This document shows, in pieces, positions 9,911-31,769 of a stretch of 64,000 bases of DNA (positions are counted from its first letter, which is position 1; the number at the start of each line of letters is the position of its first letter). This stretch comes from Armatimonadota bacterium. Its GTDB lineage: Bacteria; Armatimonadota; SYMT01. A model generated the notes under the pieces. That model was given only the letters and a program-made list of their open reading frames with translations, was not told where the DNA came from and did not search any database. The stretch lies in the NCBI GenBank assembly GCA_041690135.1, contig JAWLHY010000011.1, positions 256,668 to 320,667 on the forward strand. The letters are read 5' to 3'. The position numbers and the translations under genes are program-made.

Positions 9911-10192
9911 GAGATGAGCGTGGGATCGCGGCTGGACGGCCCCGGTGCCGCCGGGGGGTTGTGAAACCGCACTGCGGTGGAGGTTTCAGTAACAGCCGTC
10001 CCCTAGTCTCAATCCACACCCCACCAGGTAGGGGATCCCAGCAGACAACGAGAATCCTTTCCTGCGGATTCCGTGCCGGAGTCACGACCCACACCCTGCT
10101 ACGGGTGGGTTCGGAACCTTCATCTGCGGTCATCTGTGGACTTACCGGCTCCCAACCGCACTCCCCCAGCAGGGGAGAGATAGAAACCACGC

Positions 10193-13543: not shown

Positions 13544-15361
13544 CTAAGGTGCGTAGTAATGCCACTTGTAGCCCAATTCCTGGCTCTTGCCGGGGTCCAG
13601 CTTCACGTCCCAGGTGATCCGGGCCACGCCGTTGCGGGCGTGCCACCAGTAAGGCCAGTTGTACCAGGACCACCAGTACGGGCGGTGCTCGCCGGGCGCG
13701 TAAGAGTCGTCCTCGAACACGTTGACCTTCTCCACCTTGCCGTCGTGGCTCGCGCTGTCCACGTTCCCCAGCACGTGGCGGGTCACTTCGACTTCTACCG
13801 GCTGTCCCCGGCGGTTCGTGAGCGTGATGGATCCCTCCAGTTCCACCTTCGTCAGATGCGTGCCGTTGTGGTTGACGGCGTTCGGAGTGCGCGCGGTCTC
13901 GCGGTCGCGTTTCCGGACGGAAATATCCAGCGCCGGGTTCACGGTCACGTCCACGTCGCCGCCTGGGGAGGTATAGGTCATCGTGCCCTGCGCGAGCACC
14001 TGATCTCCCTTGAGGATCAGCGCGGGCGCCGTGGTGAACGGCTGCTGAGTGCTGTTGGAGAGGCGGATCTTGTGCATCACCTTCGGAGCACTCAGCATGC
14101 GGGCCAGCTCGTTCTGCTGCTCGCTGTTGAGACTGCCGCGGACTTCCGGCGGGGGCGCAAACGGCAGGTCCAGGGTGAACACGTCGCGGTACTTCACCCG
14201 GTATTCGTTCACCGGCAGCACCATCCGCTGGCCCTTTTTGAGGGTAATGTTCCGGACGGTGAACACGAAGAGGTTCTCCGCTTTGCTTGAGCCGGCAACT
14301 TCCGGGCCCAGGTCTCCCGGCGGCTGGTCGGACGGAAGCGTACCGCGGTCTTCGCCAAAACGGCCGGCACCCATACCACCGGCCACCTGCGACATCATGG
14401 CGTTCGAGAGAGCGAATTGGGTCCGCACGCCCTGCTGGAAGTGCTGGCCGAGCTGCGCCACGGACTGCTGCAGGCCGATCGGGTCCGGCATGTCCTGGAA
14501 AGCGAAGGAGGGCACGCCCACTACCAGGTTGGCGGTGGCGTCGCGGAGGTCGGTCAACTCGTTGATCAGGGTCGCCTGGAGTTGCACCACGGCATTCCCG
14601 GCGCCGTCGATCGTTACCTTGTAGTGCGGAATCCAGCGGAGACCCTTCTGGAGGTAGAGCATCCCCACGGAAGCCTGGGGCTGCCGCGCCTTCCCCTGCC
14701 AATCGAGCCGCAGCGTGAGCAGGTGGCGGAACTCCTCGTTCGTCACCTTCAGGCCGTGTTCGTTCTTGAAGGTCACGTCCTGGATGCGCTCCACGGGTAC
14801 CGCCTTGACGCCGCGACTGGTCCGCAGCAGCAGGAGGTTACCCTTCACCGGGAGCGCCTCGCCCATGTTCGGCGGGTTCGTCGCTTCCAGCTCTGCGGAG
14901 GTCCGCTCCGTGAAGCCGAGGATCACCGCGTCGTACTTCTCCCCGCCCAGTTCCGTTACCGAGACGGAGGCGCCCTCGTTCGCCTCGATTAACTCCCGGA
15001 GATTGAGGGCCGTCCGCTCCACCGCCAGCCGGCGGGGACTGGCCACCACTGCGGAGAGCTTCACCCCCGGCTCGCTCGCGTACGGCCAGAAGGTCCCCAG
15101 GACGGGCGCGGGGAGGTAGTCCATCACCACGTTTCCGGCATCGTCCACCGGCATGCGTCCCTCGTGGAGCACGAAGGCGTGGCCATCCTTGAAGACCGTC
15201 ACTTCCTTCACCGGCAGCTTCGCGAGAGCGCTGGCTTTCGGCACGGCCTCCGCCGGGGCCGCGACTGCCGGGCGAGGCATGGGGCGCGCACCCTGGGCGT
15301 GCACGGCGCCGGCGGCCAGGACCAGGACCAAGCCGAGCGAAAGATAGCGGGGCGAATGCAT
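13544..15361 (-). CDS. Secreted DUF4139/DUF4140-like protein
   Basis: Signal peptide MHSPRYLSLGLVLVLAAGAVHA, 'VKEVTVFKDGHAFV', 'YLQKGLRWIPHY' and C-terminal 'WDVKLDPGKSQELGY'. AAGGAG RBS. Confidence 0.75.
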   Translation of the reverse strand: MHSPRYLSLGLVLVLAAGAVHAQGARPMPRPAVAAPAEAVPKASALAKLPVKEVTVFKDGHAFVLHEGRMPVDDAGNVVMDYLPAPVLGTFWPYASEPGVKLSAVVASPRRLAVERTALNLRELIEANEGASVSVTELGGEKYDAVILGFTERTSAELEATNPPNMGEALPVKGNLLLLRTSRGVKAVPVERIQDVTFKNEHGLKVTNEEFRHLLTLRLDWQGKARQPQASVGMLYLQKGLRWIPHYKVTIDGAGNAVVQLQATLINELTDLRDATANLVVGVPSFAFQDMPDPIGLQQSVAQLGQHFQQGVRTQFALSNAMMSQVAGGMGAGRFGEDRGTLPSDQPPGDLGPEVAGSSKAENLFVFTVRNITLKKGQRMVLPVNEYRVKYRDVFTLDLPFAPPPEVRGSLNSEQQNELARMLSAPKVMHKIRLSNSTQQPFTTAPALILKGDQVLAQGTMTYTSPGGDVDVTVNPALDISVRKRDRETARTPNAVNHNGTHLTKVELEGSITLTNRRGQPVEVEVTRHVLGNVDSASHDGKVEKVNVFEDDSYAPGEHRPYWWSWYNWPYWWHARNGVARITWDVKLDPGKSQELGYKWHYYAP

Positions 15362-15398
15362 GGCGGGGCTCCTTCCAACTCCAGCGGTGACACCGGTT

Positions 15399-15427
15399 GG
15401 ACGCTGGAGGGTGGGGGTGGGGTTACA
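15399..15427 (-). promoter_or_regulatory. ECF-sigma-type promoter upstream of the DUF4139 gene
   Basis: TGTAACC-N16-GCGTCC on the minus strand about 40 bp before the ATG, matching the common ECF AAC/CGT consensus. Confidence 0.55.
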
Positions 15428-15449
15428 CCCGGAAAGGGGTGTTTGTGGG

Positions 15450-15590
15450 CATTCGGCGTTCAGGCGTTGGGCGTTCAGGCATTGGGCGTTGGGCGTGGTG
15501 CAGGAGCGCGGACGTCCCGTCCGCCCGTGTTCGGGTGTTCGGGCACCCCTGTGGGGCGTAAATGTTCGGGTGTTCGGGTGTTCAGGCGGT
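15450..15590. repeat. Short tandem repeats (TTCAGGCG/TTGGGCG and GTTCGGGT)
   Basis: Visible 7-8 bp iterations in the intergenic region. Confidence 0.6.
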
Positions 15591-15913
15591 GAAGTCAGGG
15601 CCTGTTCCAGGCTCACCGATCTTGTGGGGGGCGCAGACCCACCAGCCTGAACTTCCGTCGTCCTATGGGCACAAGTTCCAGGTCCGGCTGGGCCTCCTCA
15701 GCCGCTGACGCGAGGAGTTGCCGGACCCACCGGTCGATCTCGGGGCCAAGCAAGAAGGGGCTGGTCTTCCAGAAGTCCCTTGAGAGCTCACATCGATAGG
15801 CAACGCCGCCGCCCGCCTATGCGGGGTGGAGCCGATAGCCACATTTCAACTACCACCCCCCGCCGCGAGCAGACTTACTCACTCAGGTTCCGTCCAGCCC
15901 GCGTTACTCCACC

Positions 15914-16414
15914 TCAATCATTGCCAGCGACCGCATGGTATTGCCCTAGCTGTGGCAGGTACTCGACTGTCCGCAAGCCACTGCGGACGGAACTCTGTTT
16001 CGAGTTGCCTGACGGAAGCGAGCCCGATGGCAGGGTGGAGTCGTGGCTCGCACGGTACCGGAAGGCGCCGTCATTGGCTCCGGGTGCGGAACCATTTTCC
16101 TTCCAGATTTGTTTCACCCAGGTCGAGGGCGGCGTTGTATCCGGAAGCGTGAACCGGATCGTGTATAAGGATGAACCATACATATCCTTCTCCTCACTCA
16201 CATAGATCAGGCGGCTCTCCGGAGGAAGCCAGGCGTAGTGACGGACCTCCTTCTGATAGAAGGCCTGGGCATCTCTCTTGTGATACCGGGGCATCCCTTG
16301 GAACGAGAGGTAAACTGCTGCTACAACAAAGGGCATCAAGAGGAAGGTGGCGGCGATAGACAGGATGGCGCCCCCTACAAGAGCCATGTCGCGCCTGGCG
16401 TGTTCGCTTATCAT
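15914..16414 (-). CDS. Hypothetical membrane-anchored protein
   Basis: 166 aa ORF with an N-terminal TM segment and atypical, lower-GC codons. Confidence 0.55.
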   Translation of the reverse strand: MISEHARRDMALVGGAILSIAATFLLMPFVVAAVYLSFQGMPRYHKRDAQAFYQKEVRHYAWLPPESRLIYVSEEKDMYGSSLYTIRFTLPDTTPPSTWVKQIWKENGSAPGANDGAFRYRASHDSTLPSGSLPSGNSKQSSVRSGLRTVEYLPQLGQYHAVAGND

Positions 16415-16577
16415 TGGAGAGTTGCGCCTTTCCCGTGGAAGCCTCTTTCGGAGTCAGAGTCGCTTCTCGTTCCCCTCTGCGCTTAACCCCGGAGAGTGGT
16501 GCGGTTTCGGGGCCCCTCTGTGTCGAAGCCGAACCCCTCCTGCACCAACGGGGATCAGGCTTCTACCTTACGTCTCT

Positions 16578-16680
16578 CTGTAGCCCTCCGGAGCTGTTTT
16601 TTTACAGGCACCAGTTCCGGGCGCTCGCCCCCCCGGCTCACGAGCGGACTGCTGTTTTCTCCCTCCCCTCCGGGGCTACG
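16578..16680 (-). repeat. Palindromic dispersed element (AGCCCCGGAGGGG family), copy 1
   Basis: Minus strand gtagccccggagggg...ccgggggg.gagcgcccgg...agctccggagggctacag matches the copies at 51575 and 53763. Confidence 0.65.
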
Positions 16681-16803
16681 AATCGCCTCGTACCACCAGG
16701 TGGGCCGCACTGTGCAGTCTCCCGTGCAGAGCCATCGGTTTTGCTCCTATGTAAAACACAAGAGTCGTTCGATTCAGGTACTGGCGATTCACAGGAAAGC
16801 AGT

Positions 16804-17382
16804 TCAGTTGCGCATGACGGCGACTTGCACTCTGGACCCACTGGTGGAGGGGATCGCAACTCCCGATGCGGAGGCGTTGGGCTCAATTTCCAAGAGGAAG
16901 TCACGGCGATGGGTATGTTCCTCATAGGGACACTTGTATGAGAAGGTCAACACCGCCGTCCGCCAGCGCTGCGATCTCCTGTGCGGGCGATAGAAGAACT
17001 TCGGGACCTGCCCGGCGTGATGTACGAAACGAACAGCACCCTTTGCGGAAGCGCTGCGGGGCACCGTCCATACACGAATGCGTATTCGGCTGGATTCATG
17101 CATGAGGCTCTGGCTTTGCCCGTTGGAATCAATCTCATAAACGTGAAAGTCGGCTGATGGACTCGTGCTGTGGAGCGTGCCAGATCGTGTGTCTGTGGCG
17201 TCGGCATTATCATTCAGATAATCGACACCAATCCGATCAATCTGGCTGCAGGTAAATGGCACGCCGTGGGGACCGGTGGTCTTCCCACGCGCCTGTCCGG
17301 GTCGTTGATCGAACGACAAGGAAAGTGCTCCCAGCAGGCAAGATCCTACCCATAGCGCGGGCGTTGAGCGTGGCCTGAACAC
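16804..17382 (-). CDS. Putative exported hypothetical protein (about 192 aa, GTG start)
   Basis: GGAGG RBS 5 nt before GTG and a signal-like 'ALWVGSCLLGALSLSF'. It is the 3' part of the 16804..18153 ORF. Confidence 0.4.
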   Translation of the reverse strand: MFRPRSTPALWVGSCLLGALSLSFDQRPGQARGKTTGPHGVPFTCSQIDRIGVDYLNDNADATDTRSGTLHSTSPSADFHVYEIDSNGQSQSLMHESSRIRIRVWTVPRSASAKGAVRFVHHAGQVPKFFYRPHRRSQRWRTAVLTFSYKCPYEEHTHRRDFLLEIEPNASASGVAIPSTSGSRVQVAVMRN

Positions 17383-17648
17383 TTGGACCTCCGCATCCCT
17401 TTCAAGAGATTTCCTTCGTCTCAACCCGGAGTTGAACGAGAACGGCTGTGCGTCTCCCATCGGCGGGACGGTCGGGGGACGCATGCCTCCCGACCGTGTC
17501 CCCGGAACAGTCCCCGTCGAAAGAGCAAGCCGGTTCGTGAAGGGCTGTTCCGTCCAGTCGGTATCGAAACCTTCGTCTGTGTCGCTTTCCGTTCCCCTCT
17601 GCGTCCCTCTGTGTCGAAGCTTGAACCCCACTCTGGCCATTCCGGAGG

Positions 17649-18278
17649 CTACCTTCTCACCAGAAACCGCAGCACCCACAACACCCCCAGCGAACCCGCT
17701 AACAGCAGATTCACCCGCATAAGGGGATCGTGAAGCTGGAGCGCCACCCCCGTCAGGGAAGCGTGGAGGGAAGGCGCAACCCCTGCAGCAAGGGCAAGAC
17801 CAGTCATGAGGACCAGAAGGCCCGGTAGGCCGGCGCGGAGGTCGGACCAGCTGGGCACCAGGGCGGCGCCGATGCTGGCCATAAGCCAGGCCGCGGCCAC
17901 CATTGGGAGCGGAGTTTCGGGACGGACGAACGGGGCCAGGGCGAGCAGTGCCGCACAGCCGGCCAGGAGCGGCATGAACGAGATGAGCGGCTGGGTTACC
18001 AGTCGCCAGCGGGGCGGGTCGTGCGCCACCCAGCCCTGCCCCGCGCGCCAGAGGACCACTTCCCGCACGCGCGCCCCCACGAGCAGGCAGCCGAACACGT
18101 GCGCCAGCTCGTGAAGCGCCACACCGGGGGCGAAGAAGAGCGCGTACAGCCAACGTTGCCGCCCGGCCAGGTGCGCGGCCGCCTGTCCCAGGAGACGGGC
18201 GAGCAGCAGGACGAGGAGGGTGGCCACAACCACGGTTGTCAGCGGCGCGCGTGCGGGATCAACAGGTAACTCGGGCAC
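17649..18278 (-). CDS. M50-like membrane metallopeptidase
   Basis: 'FFAPGVALHELAH' HExxH within a TM segment, multiple TM helices and a PSWSD motif. Confidence 0.7.
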   Translation of the reverse strand: MPELPVDPARAPLTTVVVATLLVLLLARLLGQAAAHLAGRQRWLYALFFAPGVALHELAHVFGCLLVGARVREVVLWRAGQGWVAHDPPRWRLVTQPLISFMPLLAGCAALLALAPFVRPETPLPMVAAAWLMASIGAALVPSWSDLRAGLPGLLVLMTGLALAAGVAPSLHASLTGVALQLHDPLMRVNLLLAGSLGVLWVLRFLVRR

Positions 18279-18342
18279 GAGAATGCCCTTGGCCGCTCAC
18301 GCCGGCTCTCCCTCCTGTCCCATTCGTTCACTTACCTGTTGC

Positions 18343-18987
18343 TTAACGCGTTCCTCGACTACGACGGTTCCGGAACGCCGCCAGCCCCATCAGGGCCGGC
18401 AGAAAGAGAAGGACCGACGAAGGCTCCGGCACGGCCGATCCTTCCGTTTGGGTGAAGTTGTAGGCCTCTCGCACCGTGTCGTCGGGCATCTGCATCGACA
18501 GGACGCGGTTATCCGAGAACCGGACGAAGATCGTGCTGTTGGGAGCCGCGCCGTTGTTGAAGAAGATGGTACGGAAGTCTACCTGCGCATCCACGGAATC
18601 GGGGTCCATGTCGGTGCGGAAGGCGAACTCCTTTCCCGCCCCCAACCCGGTGAACGTGTAGCGGAACTCATCGCTCCGCACGGTGGCGCCGTCTCCGGAA
18701 CTGTCCGGCGCATGGAGCACGAACCCGACACCGGGGCTGTGTGTCTCGTTCTGTCCCGAGTCGAAGTTGAAGGCGGGATTGCCGATGCCTACCTTGAGCT
18801 CCACGATCTCGAAGCCGGGAGAGGAGATGTTGGTGAGCTTCCAGGCGGGCGCGTCGGCCGCGGACACCGTATCGATCCCGGGCGGCAGGAACAGGTCAAG
18901 GGAGTAGCCGATGGTCTGCGCCTGGGCCGGAGCGGAGGAGAGCGCCAGAGCCAGGAAGGCAAGACAGATTACTGGACTTCGTTTCAT
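18343..18987 (-). CDS. PEP-CTERM sorting domain protein
   Basis: Signal peptide. C-terminal VPEPSSVLLFLPALMGLAAF followed by RNRRSR. Confidence 0.9.
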   Translation of the reverse strand: MKRSPVICLAFLALALSSAPAQAQTIGYSLDLFLPPGIDTVSAADAPAWKLTNISSPGFEIVELKVGIGNPAFNFDSGQNETHSPGVGFVLHAPDSSGDGATVRSDEFRYTFTGLGAGKEFAFRTDMDPDSVDAQVDFRTIFFNNGAAPNSTIFVRFSDNRVLSMQMPDDTVREAYNFTQTEGSAVPEPSSVLLFLPALMGLAAFRNRRSRGTR

Positions 18988-19012
18988 GAACGGTCTTCCT
19001 ATTCCTTGGAAA

Positions 19013-19795
19013 TTAGCGGGGACGCCGATGGAGGTACCGGGACCCTACCAATCCCACGAGAACCGGTAGGAAGAGAAGGACGGCCGAAGGCTCCGGCACG
19101 GCCGGGGTTTCGGAGCCGGCGCCCTGAATGGAAAAGGACGCGGTCATGGTTCCCAGGTTGTCATCGTAGTAACCGGGCGGACCGTTGAAGGCAAAACCAT
19201 CGGCAAACCCCAGGAAGAGACGGGTGGCGCCGTCGGGTACGTGGAAGGCCTGGATAGCTCCCGCGCCGGTGCCGCTACGGCCGTCACCGATGAAGAACGT
19301 CTGGCCGATTACCGGCGCCAGTTGGGTGAACCCGCTATTTCCGGTGAAGTCCAGGCGGGCGGGAGCCGGAGCAACGGGAGCATCATCCGTCAGAAAGACG
19401 CCGGTCAGAAAGCCGACTCGGTCCAGGGCGGTGATGCCGGAAATGCCACCCACCGAATCGAGGTCGGTGAACTCGCGACTTGCGGTCCCGGGGCGCCCAT
19501 CCGGACCGTTTGCGGGCGTCAGTGGATCATCTTTACAGCAGTCGAAAGTGCCGCTGACGCTGGTGAATTGGAGAATCCGCCCCGTTCCCGGGTTGAGGGA
19601 ATAGGAGGGTGGTAGGGTCCCTCCTCCGCCGCCGGCGGGAGCCGGGGGAAGCGTGAGACCGGCGCCAAAAATGTTGGAGGTGGCCTGAATGGCCTGACCC
19701 GAATAGGTCTGCGCCGCAGCGGGGCTCGCCGCCATCAACGCGCAGCAGGCCAGTGAGAAGAAGGTCCGGACCAGAGAGCCGTGAGGATGTGTCAT
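19013..19795 (-). CDS. PEP-CTERM sorting domain protein
   Basis: Signal peptide ending SPAAA|Q. C-terminal VPEPSAVLLFLPVLVGLVG followed by RYLHRRPR. AAGGA RBS. Confidence 0.9.
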   Translation of the reverse strand: MTHPHGSLVRTFFSLACCALMAASPAAAQTYSGQAIQATSNIFGAGLTLPPAPAGGGGGTLPPSYSLNPGTGRILQFTSVSGTFDCCKDDPLTPANGPDGRPGTASREFTDLDSVGGISGITALDRVGFLTGVFLTDDAPVAPAPARLDFTGNSGFTQLAPVIGQTFFIGDGRSGTGAGAIQAFHVPDGATRLFLGFADGFAFNGPPGYYDDNLGTMTASFSIQGAGSETPAVPEPSAVLLFLPVLVGLVGSRYLHRRPR

Positions 19796-19910
19796 TCGGA
19801 AGAGTTCCTTTCGCAGCCGACACCAACAGAGGATGCGAAAGGTTGCCGAATGTAGCCACGTCCAGGAACTGCTTTTTTTGCCCTGTCTCCACAGAAGAAG
19901 GGAAGGTCTG

Positions 19911-22900
19911 TTACGGGTTGGCCGGCCGCGCTCGCACAAAAGGGGAAGTCAGCGGGAAGCTGGCGTCGGAGATGCTCACCTGCTGTCGCGGACCATCCAA
20001 CTCGTGAACCCGCCGGGCAACATATTCCGCGAGCGTGTTGAAGCGGACGAAAGGAGTGGATGGGTCCGCGTGCCCCCGCAACCCTTCGAGCAAGGCGTAA
20101 GTGAACACACCGTGACCCAGACGAGCCCGCTCCTGGGCCAGTTGGTCCGGAGTGGCGCTTGCCAGGAGCACCACCCCCGATGCCGGGCTCATCATCCGCT
20201 CGGCCCGGACCGCCGGAACCGGGATCTTGCCGGAGTGGCAGGTATCGGCGAACACGATCACCTGCCGCGCGCTCAGCTTCGGTCCGAGCCATTCTGCGAG
20301 TTGGGCGCCCGTGAGAGTGGTTTCCAGGAGCCGTCGGTTAGAGGAAACATCCAGCTCATAAGTGCCGAAGCAGTAGTTCCCGGCCTCGTCCCGGAGACCA
20401 TGCCCGGCCAGGTAAAGGACCACCGTGTCTTCGGGTCGTGAGCGAGCCTTGATCGCTTTCAGCCGCGCACGCAGGGCATTCCCGGTAGCCTGCGCATCCG
20501 TGAGGCAGTCCACTTCCACCCGCGTGTACAGTTCCTTCTGCCCCGCAAACACTGAAGCGACGGCGCGAGCATCGCCGGCAGGGAACGCCAGCGAATAGGC
20601 CGGATCCCGGTAACGAGAGACCCCGGCGCACAGGACGAAGAGCCGTCCCCGTACGGCGGGCGCTCCCGGCCGGCGGATGAGGATCTCGACGGGATCGGCA
20701 TTGTAGCCCTGGTCGTCGAACACGGTGGCTCGCACCAGGATCAACTCTTCACCGGGCGGCAAGGGCACCGCCAGGCGCGAAATCTGATAGGCTCGATGCC
20801 GCGGGGGGAATGCCCCAGCATCCACGCCGCGGGGCAACGACGCCGGCCGCCGCTCCGCCAGGTCGGCAATAGCGCCGGAGAGCGCTTCCGGGGCCGAGCG
20901 GTCATCCAACAACACAGGACGCCCGTTCACAAAGACCTCGGCGGATCTCACACTCCTATCGTCACTGGCAAGAAGGGTCAGTTTCACCTCCCTTGCATCG
21001 GCCGCCACGGTCATCTCCGCATCCAGGAATCGACACGCGGGGGGGATATCGCCGGAGCCCAGAGGTGGGGCGGGTTCCCATACCCCCGCCAGCGCCTGGC
21101 GAACCGAGCGAGGGCGCCGGAAGCGGTTTTCGAAGCGCGCGGCCGGGTAGAGCTGGTCTTCCGCTCGCCAGGAAACCAGTTCGCCGCTTCCGGGGGACCC
21201 ATCATAGTGGCCGTTGGCGGTGACCGCCATCCACTCCGTACGCCGCTCCGTGCGCAGCGCGGTGAGCGCCACCCAGCGTTCACCGGCGGCATCGAGCTCG
21301 TTCCAGATGCGAACTGAACCGTCCGGAGCCGCCGCCGCCAACCGGAGGCTCGATAAGTCGCGAGTAAACTGTGGAAACTTCATTCCCAACCCACCCATGC
21401 GCAGCACCGGCTTTCCGGCGCCCGTGGCAATGTCCCACAACATCGGGGGAGCGCCGGGAAAGGTGGCGACGATGCTTTTTGCGTCACGCGATATGGCCAG
21501 GATGGGCGGCGAAATGGAGGTCGTGGTGAGGATGTGATTCCCGTCGGGCGTCCAGGCGAACTCGGCGAGCCGGGGATGGGGAATGGAGCGCCGGACCTCA
21601 CCAGTCCGCGCGTCCCATAGGCAAAGAGAGGTACGCAACATGCCGCGCTCGGGGGGTAGCATCAGGCTACCGGCCAGGGCCTTGCTATCGGGGCTCCACT
21701 GGATGGACCCACCGCCCGCAAGTGTGTGCGTCAACTTCCAGCCCTGTGCCGCTGCTCCGGTCGTCTCCCAGATCCATACCCGCCCGCCGCCGGTAGCGGC
21801 GAAGAAACGACCGTCGGGGCTCCAGGTGACCCGTCCCACTGTCTCTGAAAAGTTCCTCAGCCCGGAGAGACGCTGCCCGGTATCCGGATCCCAAAAGCTG
21901 ACGGGCGCATCCCGGCTGACGATCGCCAGGATCTTTCCGTCCGGGCTCCACGCGGCGATACTTGCCTCGGGGGCGCGGGTGGCCGCTGGAGGTGGGAGTG
22001 GCGGGCCGGCAGCCCCCTTCAAGGTTTGCACCGGCCGTAATGTTTGCACGTCCCAGAGCTCGATCATTCCGTCGTCCGTTACGGCCGCCAGAACCTTACC
22101 GTCGGGCCGCCAGGTCAACGCAAGCACCGTCCGCTCCAGGTGGCTGAGGCTGCCTCGCAATTCTCCTGTCCGGGTATCCCAGATCCGGGGGGGCGCACCG
22201 TTGCCGGCGGTCGCCAGTTCACGACCATCCGGAGACCAGGCCACGGCCGTTAGTTCCAGGCTATGCCCCCCCAGGATCTCGGCCTTCTGACCCTTGAGTG
22301 TCTCCCATAAGCGGATGCGCGCGTCCGTGGTCGCGACGGCAAGCTGCCGGCCATCCGGACTCCAGTCGAGGGCGTAGAACGAGTCAGGTGTTCCCCCCTG
22401 AAAGCGCTCTTGTTCTTCCGCACCGGTTTCCGAGTTCCAGAGCCGGACGGTTCCGGCATGGGTTACCGTCGCGACCCAGGGTCGAGAGGGATGCCAGACC
22501 ACCCTGGCGACAAAGCAGTCCTCCTGCGTCAGGACCCGCACCCGTTTGCCGGCAACCGCCTCCCACTGTTCGACCCCCCCGCGATAGGTGGGCGCCCGCT
22601 CCCCGGCGAACTGTCCGAACAGGCCCGTGCCCACGGCCAGGGACCGGCCATCCGGGCTCCACGCGATTCCCCGGATCGTCTGCGTGCATTCTCCCGTCCA
22701 GCGCAGCTCCCACGTCGCGGTGTCCCAGACACAAAGTTTGTTCCCACCGCCGTCGGTCGCGAGTTGGCCTCCATCCGGGCTCCACGCAACTGCTCCGCCG
22801 CCCCCGCGGGTAGAATCCAGAACTCGCTGCTGCTCGCCGGTCTTCGCGTTCCAGATGTGGGTAGCTCCACCCCCCGAAGAGGCCAGCAAGGTGCCGCGAG

Positions 22901-23354
22901 GGTGCCAGGCGACCCCATTCACCGCGCTGGCGCGCCCCATCATTACCCGCAGTTGCCGCTGCTGCCGCGGATCCCAGATGCGGATGGTGCCTTCATAGCC
23001 GCCGGATGCCAGGAGCGCCCCGTCCGGGCTCCAGCTTACCGACCGCACCCCCATTTCGTGACCGCGCAGCACCGCGTAGGTCCGTCGCTTCCGCACGTCC
23101 CAGAGCCGGAGGGTGCGGTCCCGGCTCGCCGAGGCCAGGCGATCTCCCTGGGGGTGCCAGGCGAGATCGAGGATCGCCGAGCCGTGACCGGATTGGAGCA
23201 ACAGCTCCGGTTGACCGGAGGCTTCCCGCACCGGGGTACCGGCAACTCCGGTACGGGCGGCTCCCGTGGTGAGGAGAAGCAGCAGAAGCAGCCAGAAGCC
23301 GGGACGGAAGGGGGCCAGCCGGTCCTGGATTGACGGTGATTCGCAGACAGGCAT
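19911..23354 (-). CDS. Exported WD40-repeat protein with C-terminal caspase (peptidase C14) domain
   Basis: Hydrophobic N-terminus and many WD40 repeats (GH...W[SH]PDG...WD). Caspase motifs GVSRY, LYLAGHG (His), FADTCHSG (Cys) and HGVFTYALLEGL. AGGAG RBS before ATG 23354; the ORF track starts at 23375. Confidence 0.9.
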   Translation of the reverse strand: MPVCESPSIQDRLAPFRPGFWLLLLLLLTTGAARTGVAGTPVREASGQPELLLQSGHGSAILDLAWHPQGDRLASASRDRTLRLWDVRKRRTYAVLRGHEMGVRSVSWSPDGALLASGGYEGTIRIWDPRQQRQLRVMMGRASAVNGVAWHPRGTLLASSGGGATHIWNAKTGEQQRVLDSTRGGGGAVAWSPDGGQLATDGGGNKLCVWDTATWELRWTGECTQTIRGIAWSPDGRSLAVGTGLFGQFAGERAPTYRGGVEQWEAVAGKRVRVLTQEDCFVARVVWHPSRPWVATVTHAGTVRLWNSETGAEEQERFQGGTPDSFYALDWSPDGRQLAVATTDARIRLWETLKGQKAEILGGHSLELTAVAWSPDGRELATAGNGAPPRIWDTRTGELRGSLSHLERTVLALTWRPDGKVLAAVTDDGMIELWDVQTLRPVQTLKGAAGPPLPPPAATRAPEASIAAWSPDGKILAIVSRDAPVSFWDPDTGQRLSGLRNFSETVGRVTWSPDGRFFAATGGGRVWIWETTGAAAQGWKLTHTLAGGGSIQWSPDSKALAGSLMLPPERGMLRTSLCLWDARTGEVRRSIPHPRLAEFAWTPDGNHILTTTSISPPILAISRDAKSIVATFPGAPPMLWDIATGAGKPVLRMGGLGMKFPQFTRDLSSLRLAAAAPDGSVRIWNELDAAGERWVALTALRTERRTEWMAVTANGHYDGSPGSGELVSWRAEDQLYPAARFENRFRRPRSVRQALAGVWEPAPPLGSGDIPPACRFLDAEMTVAADAREVKLTLLASDDRSVRSAEVFVNGRPVLLDDRSAPEALSGAIADLAERRPASLPRGVDAGAFPPRHRAYQISRLAVPLPPGEELILVRATVFDDQGYNADPVEILIRRPGAPAVRGRLFVLCAGVSRYRDPAYSLAFPAGDARAVASVFAGQKELYTRVEVDCLTDAQATGNALRARLKAIKARSRPEDTVVLYLAGHGLRDEAGNYCFGTYELDVSSNRRLLETTLTGAQLAEWLGPKLSARQVIVFADTCHSGKIPVPAVRAERMMSPASGVVLLASATPDQLAQERARLGHGVFTYALLEGLRGHADPSTPFVRFNTLAEYVARRVHELDGPRQQVSISDASFPLTSPFVRARPANP

Positions 23355-23382
23355 GCCGGGTCTCCTGACATTCACGAAGAGG

Positions 23383-24822
23383 CTATTCGGATTTCAGCAC
23401 CTGACGGCGCAGCTGCCGCAGGCCATGCAAGAGTGCAGTCGCCTCACGGGAGCCGGGGTTCTCCCGGACCAGGGACTGGAAGGCCTCCTCGGCTTCGTCC
23501 AGCAACCCGGCCCGCCACGCCAGCACGCCGCGCGTCACCAGTGAGCCGTCTCCGGCGGTCACCGCCCGCTCCAATTCCGCCGCCCGGTTCGCTTCCAGAA
23601 TGACAAAACGGGCTTCCGGCTGGCCCGTACGCGGCGTCACCCGGAGGCGGGTCTCGCCGGCGTAGGCGGCGACTTCCCACTGGTAGGTCCGGCCGCGGGG
23701 CAGCGAATTTGCTGGCTGCCACCGGGTAGCTTTGAGCCTTGGACTGGTTTCGAGTGCGAACCCCTCCAGGTCGAAGATGGTGACGATGTAGCCCTCCGCC
23801 CCCACCAGGGGAACCCACGCAAGTTCCGGCCGGTCGTCCCGGACGGCGGTTCCCACCGGGCTCTTGAGGGCGAATGCCGGTGAGCCGGGCGGAGGCACGA
23901 AACGCGCCGTGCCTTCCTCCGCATCACGGCGCGGCGCTCCCGTCAATTGCGCCAGCAGGACCGGCGGTTCCAGGCGGCGGGTCTTCCAGGCGCGCTCAAC
24001 CTCCGGCAGGACCGCCTGCGGGACGAGGCGCACGAGGCGCCCCTCCGCGTCTCGGACCAACTCTCCGTTGCCGTCCCGGACGACCGTGGCGGGGCGAGTT
24101 TCGCCGGCGCCCGGCACCGACCTGGGAATCGGTGACCGCGCGAGGCTGATCTCTAGATCCTCGAGGCGCTCCCGCAGCCGGTCCATTTCCTGCGACTGGC
24201 GCTCCCGGCTCGCCACTTCCCCCACGCGTCGGCGATCGACCGCCGCCAGCTCCTTTTTCACCTGCGCCAGCTCGCGCGAGAGACGCTCGGCTTCTTCCCG
24301 GGCGGCAGTGCCCTCCTTGCGGGCCTGTGCCAGCTCACGACCCGTGGGGGTGCCGATCTCGGCGGGGAGAGGAATGCGGAGGAGAGTCACCACCAGCACG
24401 GCGGCCGCGGCGGCCGGTAGTGCCAGGCGGCACCAGGACCAAACGGAGGTCCGGCTGGGCCGCGATGAGGATCCGGGGAGCGGAGCTCCCTCCAACTCTT
24501 CCCGGAAGGCGGCGAGGTCCCGCACTTCCGCCACGCATGCAGGGCAGACTTCTAGATGACTCCGGACCGTCTCCAGGTCCGCGGCAACGAGGGCGCCATC
24601 GACGTAATCCGCCAGTTGCTCGAAATCCAGGTGTTCCGGAGGCAGCCCGTCTTCCCGAAAGACTGACGGCAAGGCGGTCACGGCCGTTTCGTGCGGCACC
24701 CGAACCTGCTCCCGGCAAGCGGTGCAAACGGCCAGGTGATCATCCATCGCCAGCAAGTCCACGGGCGATGCCTGTCGGCGCCGGTAGCTTTCGAGTTGTT
24801 CGGGAGTCAGGTGGGCCTGCAC
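23383..24822 (-). CDS. Membrane-anchored anti-sigma factor with two zf-HC2 fingers, coiled coil and Ig-like/DUF928-like plus TPR extracytoplasmic region
   Basis: HLAVCTAC and HLEVCPAC (HxxxCxxC twice), TM LALPAAAAAVLVVTLL, 'SPVGTAVRDDRPELAW...YQWEV' and a C-terminal TPR-like helix pair. AGGAG RBS before GTG. Confidence 0.8.
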   Translation of the reverse strand: MQAHLTPEQLESYRRRQASPVDLLAMDDHLAVCTACREQVRVPHETAVTALPSVFREDGLPPEHLDFEQLADYVDGALVAADLETVRSHLEVCPACVAEVRDLAAFREELEGAPLPGSSSRPSRTSVWSWCRLALPAAAAAVLVVTLLRIPLPAEIGTPTGRELAQARKEGTAAREEAERLSRELAQVKKELAAVDRRRVGEVASRERQSQEMDRLRERLEDLEISLARSPIPRSVPGAGETRPATVVRDGNGELVRDAEGRLVRLVPQAVLPEVERAWKTRRLEPPVLLAQLTGAPRRDAEEGTARFVPPPGSPAFALKSPVGTAVRDDRPELAWVPLVGAEGYIVTIFDLEGFALETSPRLKATRWQPANSLPRGRTYQWEVAAYAGETRLRVTPRTGQPEARFVILEANRAAELERAVTAGDGSLVTRGVLAWRAGLLDEAEEAFQSLVRENPGSREATALLHGLRQLRRQVLKSE

Positions 24823-24866
24823 GGATCACTCCTGGCGGCTCTCGGGGATTGGACGGGAAAAGAAGT

Positions 24867-26030
24867 CTATTTGAGCCACGGGTAGTCCCACCCGAGCTTG
24901 AGGAGGCGCCGCCGCAGCCGGTCGCGGGCATTCTGCCGCAGAACGATCACCTGGCGCGGCTGCAGATGCAGCCGTTCCGCGACGCGGCGATCGTCCAGGG
25001 GCAGGTCGGGCCAGAGCCCGGCCAACTCCTCCGCCGGCATCTCCAGCAAGGCCGCGATCTCGCGCAGAGAGGCCAGACCCTCCGCGGGCAGGAGGCGGAT
25101 GACTCCCTCCGAGAGAGTCAACACGAGCGCGGTCCGCTGGCGAAGGGGGAGTAGGCCGAGCTCGAACCAGAGATCACGGAGAAATTCCCGCACTTCCAAC
25201 TGCCGGACAAACTCGCCGCGGGCATCCGATACCCGTTCGAGAGGATGCACCTCGTGCGGGGATTCCGGCTCGATGCGGGTGGCTTCGCGGACCTGCCGAA
25301 TCTCGGCGGATACCTTGATCAGTCGCGGTAGCAGCAGCGGAGTATCCAGCCACCGGAACAGCCGCTCCATAAAAGGGAGCAGGGCGAGGCCGACCGGGTC
25401 CTCGTCGGGAAAGATCCAGCCAGAGCACTGCTGAGAGTTCGCTTCCAGTTGAGTACGGCGTTTCAGTGCGTCGCTTTCGGGCCGGGGGCTCTTCCCTTCT
25501 GTCCGCCACCATCGCCAACCCGTCCATCGATCGGCGCCGTCCCCGCGCCACAGCGTCAAGGCGGTCCGGTCCCCGCACCGGGTGAGCAGATAGCGGATGC
25601 GATTGGAGAGGTAAGTCCACGCGGGTCGCTCTCGCCGGAGCCTGGCGGTGACCGTCTGCCCCGCAAGCAGCGCCGCCACGGCTTCCACGTCCCGGATCGC
25701 TTCACCCGTCCCGCTCCGCGCCTCTCCGAGCCGCCGGATGAGCCGCAACAGCGTCTCGCTCCGCAGGTCGTCCAGGTCATCGGCGTGATTTCCGCTCCGA
25801 TCGCGGCCGGTACATCCCCACTCCTTGCGGAGGATGCCTTCGATCCGGGGCGTGAGCGCCTTCAGGAGTGCCTCCAAACAGGCGGGTGCGTCGCCATCCG
25901 AGGCCCGCAGGTAGGACGCCAAAAGCTCACCTGGAAGGGGTGAAGCGCGAGCATTCTCGACTCCGGATTTGCGCCGCAGGAGGTCTAACATTCGCCGGGT
26001 AGCCAGGCACGAGGGTAGTGGAGGAAGCAA
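24867..26030 (-). CDS. Atypical ECF-like sigma-70 factor with a large insertion between regions 2 and 4
   Basis: Region-2-like 'DDLDDLRSETLLRL'; region-4-like 'LPLRQRTALVL...LREIAALLEM...VAERLHL...RQNARDRLRRRL'; adjacent to a zf-HC2 gene. Start uncertain (ATG 25991 is an alternative). Confidence 0.75.
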   Translation of the reverse strand: MLPPLPSCLATRRMLDLLRRKSGVENARASPLPGELLASYLRASDGDAPACLEALLKALTPRIEGILRKEWGCTGRDRSGNHADDLDDLRSETLLRLIRRLGEARSGTGEAIRDVEAVAALLAGQTVTARLRRERPAWTYLSNRIRYLLTRCGDRTALTLWRGDGADRWTGWRWWRTEGKSPRPESDALKRRTQLEANSQQCSGWIFPDEDPVGLALLPFMERLFRWLDTPLLLPRLIKVSAEIRQVREATRIEPESPHEVHPLERVSDARGEFVRQLEVREFLRDLWFELGLLPLRQRTALVLTLSEGVIRLLPAEGLASLREIAALLEMPAEELAGLWPDLPLDDRRVAERLHLQPRQVIVLRQNARDRLRRRLLKLGWDYPWLK

Positions 26031-26093: not shown

Positions 26094-26579
26094 TCATGAC
26101 GCTCCCGATACCCGGCAAGAAGTACGCAGAGTCACCACACCCTCCAGCGCATGGCCGAGCTCCTGGAGTAAAGGACCGGCACAGGCCTCCTCCACGGCCG
26201 GAAACAGCTCCCGCTCCTCGAAGCGGATGTGGTCGTGGAGCCGGCTTGCGGTCTCGGCGACGAGCTCGGCTAGCCGCGGATCGTCCGCCGTCTCCGCGGC
26301 GGCCAACTCCCGGGCAAGGCGGCGGAGGGTGACGTGCTCCACCAGGGTCCGCACGAGGAGCGGATGGTCATCCGCCAGCGCCCGGGCGCACTCGGGGAGC
26401 AGGACCTCCTCCTCGGCCCGGAAGTGCGGGAGGATCTCTCCTTCCCACTCTCGCAGGAACTCCCGCACGGTTTCCCGCAGCGGCCGCCGGCTCTCCGACG
26501 CCAGGCGCAGGTTCCGTGCCGCGACCAGGCCGTAATGATGTTGTTCGGAGAGGTCCCTCAACTCCGGGCTCCGCTTCAT
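26094..26579 (-). CDS. Hemerythrin/HHE cation-binding domain protein
   Basis: LSEQHH, HFRAEE, EH and HIRFEERELFP motifs. Confidence 0.88.
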   Translation of the reverse strand: MKRSPELRDLSEQHHYGLVAARNLRLASESRRPLRETVREFLREWEGEILPHFRAEEEVLLPECARALADDHPLLVRTLVEHVTLRRLARELAAAETADDPRLAELVAETASRLHDHIRFEERELFPAVEEACAGPLLQELGHALEGVVTLRTSCRVSGAS

Positions 26580-26968
26580 CCGCTCTTCTTCCCTTCCGGG
26601 GCAATGGTCAACAGGAACACGGCATCCTGGAGAGCCAGCACCGCATGCCGCCGACGGGCGGCCAGGGTCAGCAACTCTCCGGGGTGAAGGTCCACGCTTT
26701 CCTCACCGACCTGGAACCGCACCGCTCCTTCCAGCACGTGGACGGTGATGGGTCCCGGCGCCTGGTGCTCCAGCAGCTCCGCTCCGGCCCGCATGGCCTG
26801 CAAGACCACGCGCAGCTCCGCGTTCTTCACCAGCAGCACGCCGTTGCGGCCGTTCTCCCCGTACTCCGGCTCCTCGCGCAGGGTCTCCAGGGTCGCGTTC
26901 AGGTCCACCACGTGGGGCGCCTCTTCCTCCGGGTGCAGTTGCTGCATGCGGGCTTCCGCCGTTGCCAT
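26576..26968 (-). CDS. Cupin domain protein
   Basis: 'EHQAPGPITVHVLEG...HAVLA'. AAGGAG RBS. Overlaps the hemerythrin start. Confidence 0.88.
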   Translation of the reverse strand: MATAEARMQQLHPEEEAPHVVDLNATLETLREEPEYGENGRNGVLLVKNAELRVVLQAMRAGAELLEHQAPGPITVHVLEGAVRFQVGEESVDLHPGELLTLAARRRHAVLALQDAVFLLTIAPEGKKSG

Positions 26969-30584: not shown

Positions 30585-31769
30585 TTACCCCGTGCGGATG
30601 TAGAAGAGGAACTCCTGGACTTCGTCGCCTTTGTAGACGCGGTTCGCGCTGTCTACGTCGGCGCGGAAGCGGGGGTAGGTGAACTTGCTGTACTCGCGGA
30701 TGCCGGAGGGGGACTTCCGGTCGAGCATCGCGATCAGCTCCTCCTCTTCGATCAGGCCCTCGTTGTTGTAGGAGACGAGGATGTGGCGAAAACGGGCCTT
30801 CTCCAGCAGGTCCGCCATGGCGGTGCGGGCGCGGGTGCGCATGGCGAAGGCGGAGCGCTTGCCCTCGTCCGGGCGGAGGCCGGTCTTGCCGACCGGGGTG
30901 AACGCCTCCAGGTCCCAGCAGGCGATGGTCTCCAGCAGGTGGTAGTTGGCGTGGTACTGGCGCCGGTTGTAAGGGGGATCGATGTAGAGGATCTCCTGCT
31001 CCGCTTCGGCGGCGAGTTCGCCCACCAGGGCGTTGGCGTCCCGGCGGTAGACCCGGTGCGGCTTGTGGCCGTTGAGGAGCAGCGGCACCCGTAGCTGCAG
31101 CGGTTGGGCGGCGGACGGCTTCAGGTGTTTCAGGTAGGCGCCGTAGATGCTGGCCGTGTTGGCGACCATGTCCATCGACTCCACCAGCGAAGCCAGCAGC
31201 ACGTGGAACTCGGCCTCGTCCACCCAGCCCTGCCGGCGCCACTCTTCCAGGGTGTCGCGGATCGCCTGGCATGCCATGCCGTTGCGTCGGCTGTAGTAGT
31301 TCCGGCCCGCGGAGCCCCCTTCGCAGTAGGTGTCGACGAAGGCCCCTTCACGGGGAGCCAGGTGGTTGAGGTAGGCGAGCACCTGCAGCAGGGGGCGTCC
31401 CGCCGGGAGGAGGCCTTCCGGGTCCCCGACCACCCCGAAGGAGAGCAGGGGGCGGACCTCGCCGCGGACGGTCCACCGCTTCCGCTCCGGCTGGCATTCC
31501 ACGGGGACGGCGTCGATCTCGGGAATTTCGGCACGCAGACGGGCGAACTGCGGGTAGCCGTTGCACCCGATGAAGGCGGACTGCAGCGCGTAGGAGTAAG
31601 CCTGGATGTCGTTCGAGTAGACGGTGAACCCCAGGCGCTTCGCCATCTGCCCGACCACGCTTGTGCCGGAAAAGATGTCGCAAAACACCCCTTCCGGGTT
31701 CACGTCGTGCTCCTCCAGCATCTTCCGGATCCGGCCCAGAAGCTTGTACTTACTCCCGATGTAGTTCAT
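30585..31769 (-). CDS. N6-adenine DNA methyltransferase, D12 class (M.NlaIII/M.HpyI-like)
   Basis: MNYIGSKYKL, CDIFSGT...SND and YIDPPYNRRQYHANYHLLETI. Confidence 0.9.
   Translation of the reverse strand: MNYIGSKYKLLGRIRKMLEEHDVNPEGVFCDIFSGTSVVGQMAKRLGFTVYSNDIQAYSYALQSAFIGCNGYPQFARLRAEIPEIDAVPVECQPERKRWTVRGEVRPLLSFGVVGDPEGLLPAGRPLLQVLAYLNHLAPREGAFVDTYCEGGSAGRNYYSRRNGMACQAIRDTLEEWRRQGWVDEAEFHVLLASLVESMDMVANTASIYGAYLKHLKPSAAQPLQLRVPLLLNGHKPHRVYRRDANALVGELAAEAEQEILYIDPPYNRRQYHANYHLLETIACWDLEAFTPVGKTGLRPDEGKRSAFAMRTRARTAMADLLEKARFRHILVSYNNEGLIEEEELIAMLDRKSPSGIREYSKFTYPRFRADVDSANRVYKGDEVQEFLFYIRTG

Follow-up and report, generated by a model that had tools for sequence, protein, structure and literature searches.

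Can a caspase-fold protease outside the cytoplasm release a sigma factor from its membrane-bound inhibitor? The question is raised by a locus within a 64,000-nucleotide stretch of DNA from an Armatimonadota bacterium (assembly GCA_041690135.1, contig JAWLHY010000011.1, positions 256,668 to 320,667), which we refer to in its entirety as the window. At this locus, genes for a predicted sigma-70-like protein, a transmembrane (TM) anti-sigma factor and a WD40-repeat protein with a caspase-type Peptidase_C14 domain, predicted to be exported, follow one another on one strand, with 44 bp between the sigma and anti-sigma genes and 7 bp between the anti-sigma stop and the caspase start. RseA-DegS-RseP and RsiW-PrsW are the classical cases of sigma/anti-sigma control by regulated intramembrane proteolysis. 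The logic of such control for extracytoplasmic function (ECF) sigma factors is an outer site-1 cut, a site-2 cut by an M50 protease and release of the sigma factor (PMC10028731, PMC11506125). The classical site-1 enzyme is a serine protease or a metalloprotease, whereas the one proposed for the window is a caspase-fold cysteine protease, and the window's sigma factor differs further in its three-part build.

A sequence-only reading of the window had cast the caspase as the site-1 protease, the genes for two PEP-CTERM surface proteins downstream as the targets of the sigma factor, and a HExxH membrane protein, with less certainty, as an M50-like member of the same system. Here we find that genes of this sigma family commonly lie beside a gene for a caspase-fold protease of either the CHAT or the C14 type. 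We see an even chance that the three genes of the window form an envelope signalling module in which the exported protease would cut the anti-sigma factor on its outer side and thereby start the release of the sigma factor, making the module a split relative of the DdvS/DdvA system of Myxococcus xanthus.

Predicted architecture of the three core proteins

Searched with Pfam, the sigma-like protein gives no family match even at E-values up to 10, the Sigma70_r2 and Sigma70_r4 models included; the ECF model TIGR02937 aligns with residues 52–375 at 24 bits, below its cut-off of 42.9. Despite these sub-threshold sequence matches, an AlphaFold model built from an alignment of 27 relatives (pLDDT 88.4) contains sigma2 and sigma4 folds, in agreement with the atypical sigma factor of the sequence-only reading. 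All 50 of the 50 Foldseek matches listed for this model are sigma-70-family chains or complexes that hold a sigma factor, at E-values of 0.02 or weaker. Using VIA-align, residues 14–119 resemble ECF sigma2 (best match M. tuberculosis SigC, Z 10.6, root-mean-square deviation (rmsd) 3.1 over 87 residues) and residues 256–370 resemble sigma4 (SigL, Z 8.8; region 4 of E. coli sigmaE, Z 8.5, rmsd 1.8), all of these Z values being below about 13, a range in which a common arrangement alone can produce such values in helical proteins. The sigma4 domain carries an insert. Where the two-domain ECF architecture has a short linker, the model has a folded middle domain of ~135 residues (about 122–255) with two short strands, part of which, in the profile of the sigma family, shows a faint likeness to the N-terminal domain of the RNA polymerase delta subunit (E 9e-4). 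The model indicates that the protein belongs to the sigma-70 family, its end domains being of the ECF type and its three-part build unusual.

The anti-sigma factor scores 32.1 bits with the Pfam model zf-HC2 (cut-off 22.2) over two stretches, and the zinc ligands H29/C33/C36 and H89/C93/C96 are each at least 90% conserved among 26 aligned relatives. A TM-like segment lies at about residues 127–151, with a TM helix at 131–148 in the structure model (pLDDT 82). In this model two three-helix bundles lead into the TM helix, which is followed by a 68-residue coiled coil and low-confidence linkers, and then by an outer part made up of an FN3-like beta-sandwich (residues 319–408) and four TPR-like helices. 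The best Foldseek match to the outer part is the C-terminal domain of MtxA (E 1.3e-5), followed by many FN3 domains. These features bear out the TM anti-sigma factor with two HxxxCxxC fingers and an Ig-like and TPR outer region that had been read from the sequence, and they place the protein among the ZAS transmembrane anti-sigma factors, which have an HxxxCxxC helical bundle and one TM segment.

Cognate binding was examined in a model of the complex. The sigma factor modelled with anti-sigma residues 1–125 scored 0.76, compared with 0.49 for the best control, with at least 78% of the contacts common to three runs and a partner pLDDT of at least 79. The mark for a pass was reached by 116 of 157 solved complexes and by 2 of 215 mismatched pairs in the calibration of the prediction tool, and a pass may reflect likeness to sigma/anti-sigma complexes that are already solved. 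Binding of the sigma factor by the zinc-finger part of the anti-sigma factor, which the sequence-only reading had presumed, is thus supported at the level of a model.

The caspase protein begins with a hydrophobic, signal-like segment (residues 27–45). It is matched by WD40 (216 bits) and by beta-propeller families, with blades at about residues 55–720 (~660 residues), and by Peptidase_C14 (PF00656; 50.9 bits, cut-off 21.4, E 2.2e-13) at about residues 905–1140 (nucleotides ~19956–20663); the part between these domains is assigned to no family. The catalytic dyad is intact, consisting of H992 in a GHG motif (codon 20400–20402) and C1046 in a DTCHSG motif (codon 20238–20240), and these residues are conserved in 25 of 27 aligned caspase domains. 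The protein is not a member of NF047832, the EACC1-associated caspases, for which it scores 80.6 bits with a cut-off of 140. The description of a WD40-caspase with a signal peptide and intact HG and DTC residues therefore stands. A caspase that was cytoplasmic or inactive would have spoken against the sequence-only reading; as predicted from its sequence, this one is exported and retains its dyad.

Caspase-fold protease genes beside the sigma/anti-sigma family

A HMMER profile of the sigma protein matched 2620 representative clusters at E ≤ 1e-3 and 1352 at E ≤ 1e-30, whereas a word-index search with the protein itself returned 3 proteins. The profile matched 72 of 401 sampled genomes of the window's phylum. 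In a species-level genome collection 301 of 410 candidate stretches were confirmed, and 80 records were kept for analysis. These are almost all from Acidobacteriota (Pyrinomonadaceae, Blastocatellia, Bryobacterales, Thermoanaerobaculia and Terriglobia), with one from Verrucomicrobiae and one without a taxon. Judging from these relatives, the window itself would fall in Acidobacteriota. We compared the neighbourhoods of 60 loci from the phylum sample and of the 80 named records, 142 loci in all, using mechanical calls of open reading frames (ORFs) and script-built profiles.

Through this comparison we identified 137 full-length relatives of the sigma factor, of which 68 have a CHAT gene and 4, including that of the window, a Pfam-confirmed C14 gene within 600 bp of the sigma/anti-sigma pair. 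Another 48 have neither and 17 lie near contig ends, so that a protease gene of one or the other kind adjoins 72 of the 120 judgeable relatives. The local CHAT matches that were checked with Pfam were TPR-CHAT proteins in five cases out of five. In 116 cases the sigma gene is succeeded by the anti-sigma gene in the same orientation. Relative to this pair, 35 of the CHAT genes are convergent and 1 is divergent; the others share its strand, with 23 lying upstream and 9 downstream. The persistence of linkage through several arrangements argues for selection on the neighbourhood, not only on co-transcription. As a rough control, we inspected 20 loci of similar size around unrelated caspase genes and found CHAT at 1 of them, compared with 84 of the 142 sigma loci. 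Beyond the triad, no neighbour family is widely shared, and the largest such cluster reaches 12 of the 142 loci.

The genome from which the window derives (9.1 Mb) provides a second instance of this linkage. A paralogous sigma/anti-sigma pair (L004:5079–11896, on contig C1 of genome G000) is followed by a 161-aa ORF without a family and then by a convergent gene for a 1214-aa TPR-CHAT protein (CHAT E 1.9e-65) with a signal-like N-terminus. Only five CHAT genes and two C14 genes are present in the genome, yet each of the two sigma/anti-sigma pairs adjoins one of them.

Two further features connect the proteases with the anti-sigma factors. With regard to location, a hydrophobic 12-mer is present within the first 70-odd residues of 61 of 78 CHAT proteins of at least 700 aa, compared with 8 of 134 sigma controls; a signal-like N-terminal segment is found in all six of the six C14 proteins in or near sigma loci; and 108 of 118 anti-sigma relatives have a TM-like segment. 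Given the signal-like N-termini of the proteases and the TM-like segments of the anti-sigma factors, one compartment, outside the cytoplasm, is predicted to contain both the protease and the outer domain of the anti-sigma factor. With regard to domain content, a protease gene adjoins 64 of the 88 pairs whose anti-sigma factor has the FN3/TPR outer part but only 2 of the 17 pairs with other C-termini.

C14 was sought in two ways. At the 29 loci of the first set that lack CHAT, Pfam was run on 49 of 141 unassigned neighbour ORFs (the large ones) and later on some further ORFs; hits of the script-built caspase profile on WD40 proteins and on one DUF4384-bearing anti-sigma factor proved false, and only Pfam-confirmed cases were kept. 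Beyond the window, three sigma pairs have a Pfam-confirmed C14 gene in the protease position (L040, L046 and L048). In L046 and L048, which come from one genus, the sigma, anti-sigma and C14 genes lie on one strand, as in the window; in L040, from a genome of the window's own family, the gene is divergent and its product combines C14 with DUF4384 (L040:3149–5329). Two CHAT-bearing loci, L043 and L122, have an additional C14 gene 2.8–3.6 kb away. The sigma factors of L040, L046 and L048 are mutually nearest relatives, as are their caspases, and the window caspase has no BLAST match to the latter. On the sigma tree the C14 label needs three changes, two of which are forced by well-supported branches. 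Because the window caspase is unrelated to the other three and the tree calls for three changes, C14 has entered the protease slot at least twice.

Another account of the window would be that a stand-alone WD40-caspase gene landed behind an ordinary sigma/anti-sigma pair, with no functional tie between them. The distribution of such caspases fits this account. We detected no sigma-like, anti-sigma or HxxxCxxC ORF at the loci of the 20 closest relatives of the C-terminal half of the window caspase (29–40% identity, mostly proteins of 850–1350 aa), and only 4 of 30 matches to the L046-type caspase fall in sigma loci. For these reasons WD40-caspases stand alone as a rule, and the arrangement in the window is a one-off recruitment among the loci examined. 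The window protein is, moreover, the only WD40-C14 protein found beside the 137 sigma relatives. The recurring triad that the sequence-only reading had anticipated is therefore found with a caspase-fold protease in the third place but not in its WD40-C14 form. The position of the gene is harder to reconcile with chance, since it is co-oriented with the pair at a gap of 7 bp and occupies the place that a CHAT gene takes in 9 loci and a C14 gene in L046 and L048. In addition, its genome has just the two Pfam C14 genes in 9.1 Mb while the other sigma/anti-sigma pair adjoins a CHAT gene, and by a rough estimate a random neighbour would be one of the seven caspase-fold genes in well under 1% of cases per pair. 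We give a chance adjacency a slight likelihood.

Several other domain combinations came to light in this family. DUF4384, present on the L040 C14 caspase, is also found on the outer part of the L047 anti-sigma factor (L047:7603–8979), and this common domain could mediate contact between an anti-sigma factor and a caspase. At L039, the locus of a close sigma relative, the protease position is taken by a gene convergent with that of the anti-sigma factor; its product is a further propeller protein, with DnaJ_C and WD40 domains (L039:11071–13206) but no recognisable protease domain. One clade of the sigma family is paired with anti-sigma proteins whose tandem zinc-finger N-terminus continues into an entire sodium:dicarboxylate symporter (SDF) domain (L052:10071–11768, L056:9921–11660 and L060:10083–11783, and also in L055 and L057); Pfam confirmed SDF in three of these proteins (E 1e-75 to 1e-95), and none of the five has an adjacent protease gene. 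The SDF-fused protein may be a transporter-coupled anti-sigma factor.

A possible site-1 role and its precedents

How might an exported caspase control a sigma factor? We propose that the two zinc-finger bundles of the anti-sigma factor would tether the sigma factor to the membrane in an inactive state, that the FN3/TPR domain of the anti-sigma factor would face the periplasm, and that the WD40-caspase would be exported into the same compartment. Once activated, which may depend on a ligand or protein held by the WD40 blades, the caspase would make the site-1 cut on the outer side of the anti-sigma factor. The sigma factor would then be freed by cytoplasmic proteases and a general M50 site-2 protease with its gene elsewhere in the genome, in which Pfam does find M50 site-2 protease genes. 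A TPR-CHAT protein would take the site-1 role in most relatives, and the C14 caspase would occupy the same slot in the window. In this scheme it is the cleavage, the sensed signal and the target genes that we infer.

A caspase-like site-1 step is less new than the sequence-only reading had assumed, one having already been proposed in print. In M. xanthus, DdvA carries a periplasmic TPR-CHAT part on an anti-sigma factor, and the authors of that work propose CHAT autoproteolysis as the site-1 step before RseP; DdvA-like proteins are reported there only from Myxococcota and one Comamonas species (PMC11506125). The window resembles DdvS/DdvA, as described in that report, in having a sigma factor that is predicted to be held by a ZAS-type, single-pass TM anti-sigma factor and a caspase-fold protease on the periplasmic side (PMC11506125). 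Yet DdvA joins the anti-sigma factor to a TPR-CHAT part, the active site of which is described as incomplete, in a single polypeptide, whereas in the window a separate, predicted exported C14 protein carries WD40 blades (PMC11506125). The window's anti-sigma factor, in contrast to DdvA, has two ZAS bundles and an FN3/TPR outer domain of its own, without CHAT, and so lacks the fusion of TPR-CHAT to the ZAS-TM part that marks the DdvA type. Sigma factors of the window type are ~355–375 aa long and have a middle domain, unlike the two-domain ECF sigma factor DdvS. A profile search among longer proteins found no fused anti-sigma form with CHAT or C14, returning only FN3-rich and MG2 forms, which is weak evidence. 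When PDB sequences were searched with the anti-sigma factor of the window and with the CHAT protein of the paralogous locus, no DdvA chain, Craspase chain or Csx30 was returned.

Two CRISPR-associated systems offer further comparisons. The Craspase system comprises Cas7-11, the TPR-CHAT protein Csx29, Csx30 and the sigma factor CASP-sigma/RpoE (PMC10028731). There, too, a caspase-fold protease relieves the inhibition of a sigma factor by cutting the inhibitor, and the cleavage was shown by experiment (PMC10028731). As that report describes it, however, Craspase is cytoplasmic, RNA-guided and tied to CRISPR, and Csx30 is neither a ZAS nor a membrane protein (PMC10028731). The window lacks the marks of a type III-E Craspase module, in that a PADLOC scan of 15 of its proteins revealed no Cas protein and its protease has an export signal; the CRISPR-independence that had been claimed for the locus agrees with that scan, in which no CRISPR gene was found. 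In the type III-B SAVED-CHAT/PCaspase system of Haliangium ochraceum, a C14-type caspase cleaves a putative sigma factor and other proteins (bioRxiv 10.1101/2023.06.23.546230). That system is described as cytoplasmic, activated by cyclic oligoadenylate and acting in abortive infection, with neither a membrane anti-sigma factor nor export forming part of the account (bioRxiv 10.1101/2023.06.23.546230).

Because its protease is unfused, of the C14 rather than the CHAT type and exported by prediction, and because no cas genes were seen, the window locus is not a member of the DdvA, Craspase or SAVED-CHAT/PCaspase systems. What is new here is a C14 WD40-caspase in the protease slot, together with a three-part sigma factor and a tandem-ZAS anti-sigma factor. 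A full-text literature search, which left subscription journals largely outside its reach, found no paper on a sigma/anti-sigma pair to which a separate gene for an exported CHAT or C14 protease is linked.

Several lines of evidence weigh against the proposed module. A protease gene is missing beside 48 of the 120 judgeable relatives; half of the adjoining CHAT genes, being convergent, belong to separate transcription units; and the conserved outer domain could let the anti-sigma factor sense a signal without any protease. The window's own sigma factor is divergent, with at most 38% identity to any other and a long, unplaced branch in the tree, and the 20 closest relatives of its WD40-caspase all stand alone. 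The genomes compared are related and not independent, so that our counts overstate the statistical support and the ratios are descriptive. The number of C14 genes in the protease position may also be too low, as the second set, of 80 loci, was screened for C14 only with the script-built profile. Finally, cleavage of the anti-sigma factor, on which the module turns, is among the steps that we infer.

The first three of these points would also fit a different order of events, in which the protease is an output of the system. A signal acting through the FN3/TPR domain of the anti-sigma factor would free the sigma factor, which would induce the exported protease along with secreted neighbours such as the PEP-CTERM proteins, and the protease would then act on envelope or surface substrates. 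The 35 convergent genes among the 68 adjacent CHAT genes would have promoters of their own, and the caspase gene of the window is followed, in the same orientation, by genes for exported PEP-CTERM proteins. The DdvA protease domain, by its location within the anti-sigma factor, points instead to the input side (PMC11506125), and the dependence of protease adjacency on the type of the anti-sigma outer domain likewise counts against an output role. Nor is any cargo family other than the protease conserved across the loci. A search for two-part promoter motifs in the 330-bp stretches upstream of 135 sigma genes found nothing common (at best 9 of 135), so that the regulon is unreadable from the DNA. 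On balance we regard an output role as unlikely.

In a third reading there would be a partnership without cleavage, in which the FN3/TPR domain binds, inhibits or monitors the exported protease and relays its state to the sigma factor. TPR and FN3 are typical protein-binding modules, the linkage and the shared compartment would be the same as for a site-1 protease, and the occurrence of DUF4384 on both the L047 anti-sigma factor and the L040 caspase is in keeping with such contact. No direct evidence speaks for this partnership, however; the conserved catalytic dyad points to proteolysis under selection, and the precedents of Craspase cleaving Csx30 (PMC10028731) and of the model proposed for DdvA both involve cleavage. 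We give a non-cleaving role only a slight likelihood.

The site-1 module can be extended, with somewhat less than an even chance in our judgement, to the whole family. TPR-CHAT and C14 proteins would then be interchangeable exported site-1 proteases of a phylum-wide family of three-part sigma factors and tandem zinc-finger anti-sigma factors, the signal would be set by each protease's repeat domain (TPR, WD40 or DUF4384), and DdvA would be a fused offshoot. If so, signals would cross the acidobacterial cell envelope by a general caspase-based route, and the bacterial WD40-caspases, the roles of which are mostly unknown, would gain a signalling job outside the cytoplasm. The occurrence of two branches of the caspase superfamily in one slot, beside the same kind of anti-sigma factor, amounts to comparative evidence for a proteolytic function that has been kept. 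For want of a known activating signal, the site-1 role of DdvA is still a proposal; in the window the protease and the protein that it presumably cuts are encoded separately, which makes the step directly testable. The sigma family is also a large one, as its 2620 representative clusters attest, and nearly all of its named records come from the Acidobacteriota, a phylum that is dominant in soil but poorly studied.

Downstream and flanking genes of the window

ORF calling at the locus returned six co-oriented ORFs, confirming the six-gene order and orientation of the sequence-only reading (Table 1). The gaps after the caspase gene are, successively, about 115, 25 and 64 bp, and the G+C content of the region is 59–69%.

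Table 1. The six co-oriented genes of the locus, in order of transcription (positions are those of the window).
Product	Position	Strand	Features
Sigma-70-like protein, as modelled	24867..25991 (26030 = alternative TTG start)	-	374 aa; sigma2, middle domain, sigma4
Transmembrane anti-sigma factor	23383..24822	-	479 aa; two zf-HC2, TM, coiled coil, FN3-like, TPR-like
WD40-caspase, predicted exported	19911..23375	-	1154 aa; WD40 and Peptidase_C14
PEP-CTERM protein 1, with signal peptide	19013..19795 (ORF to 19939)	-	VPEPS, hydrophobic stretch, basic tail
PEP-CTERM protein 2, with signal peptide	18343..18987	-	214 aa; TIGR02595 match
Polytopic membrane protein with HELAH motif, possibly a zincin	17649..18278	-	weak DUF3267/M50B matches

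The C-terminus of each putative surface protein shows the PEP-CTERM pattern, with VPEPS leading into a hydrophobic stretch and then a basic tail. With the family model the two proteins differ: PEP-CTERM protein 2 passes the TIGR02595 cut-off of 16 with 20.5 bits and PEP-CTERM protein 1 falls below it with 14.4. The genome has three EpsH-like exosortase matches, the best of which (102.5 bits) lies just under the cut-off of 105.55.

The idea that the PEP-CTERM genes form the regulon of the sigma factor found no comparative support. Neither they nor the HELAH gene have a relative in the 60 related loci or at the paralogous locus, and none of the three joined a shared neighbour family across the 142 loci. 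Besides the absence of a common promoter motif upstream of the sigma genes, comparison by eye of the regions upstream of the sigma and PEP-CTERM genes revealed no convincing common motif, and a simple promoter and terminator scan gave results at chance level. The PEP-CTERM proteins are, as far as gene neighbourhoods indicate, local cargo and not conserved parts of the module; their genes could well share a transcript with the caspase gene or serve as local targets.

The HELAH protein, the HExxH peptidase of the sequence-only reading, has about five hydrophobic segments. Its Pfam matches are weak (DUF3267, E 0.18; M50B, PF13398, E 0.39, 10.8 bits with a cut-off of 26), and among its protein atlas leads the top cluster (0.92) has no family while M50B and DUF3267 clusters follow at 0.84–0.89. 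All of the genome's matches to the M50 family PF02163 are on other contigs, and the HELAH protein is not among them. With true M50 genes elsewhere, no Pfam M50 match of its own and no counterpart at any other locus, the protein does not appear to be the M50 site-2 protease that it had been taken for, and we see no evidence in the neighbourhoods that its gene belongs to the module.

Directly upstream of the sigma gene, at a distance of 64–103 bp, lie hemerythrin (PF01814, E 5e-14) and cupin genes (26094–26968, minus strand), which were not found beside the sigma family at other loci. Downstream of the HELAH gene, the stretch at 16000–17600 has a lower G+C content (0.59) and no convincing gene, and beyond it is a 690-aa ORF without a Pfam family (13544–15616, minus strand). 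No tRNA genes were detected within positions 10000–32000. Among the 15 window proteins scanned, PADLOC identified no Cas, CRISPR, CBASS or other defence gene apart from weak caspase matches and one match to MTase_II, and since the scan gave no signal of a defence system we dropped the reading of the region as a defence island. The MTase_II match (E 3e-83) is to a D12-class type II DNA methyltransferase encoded at 30585–31769 on the minus strand, ~4.5 kb upstream.

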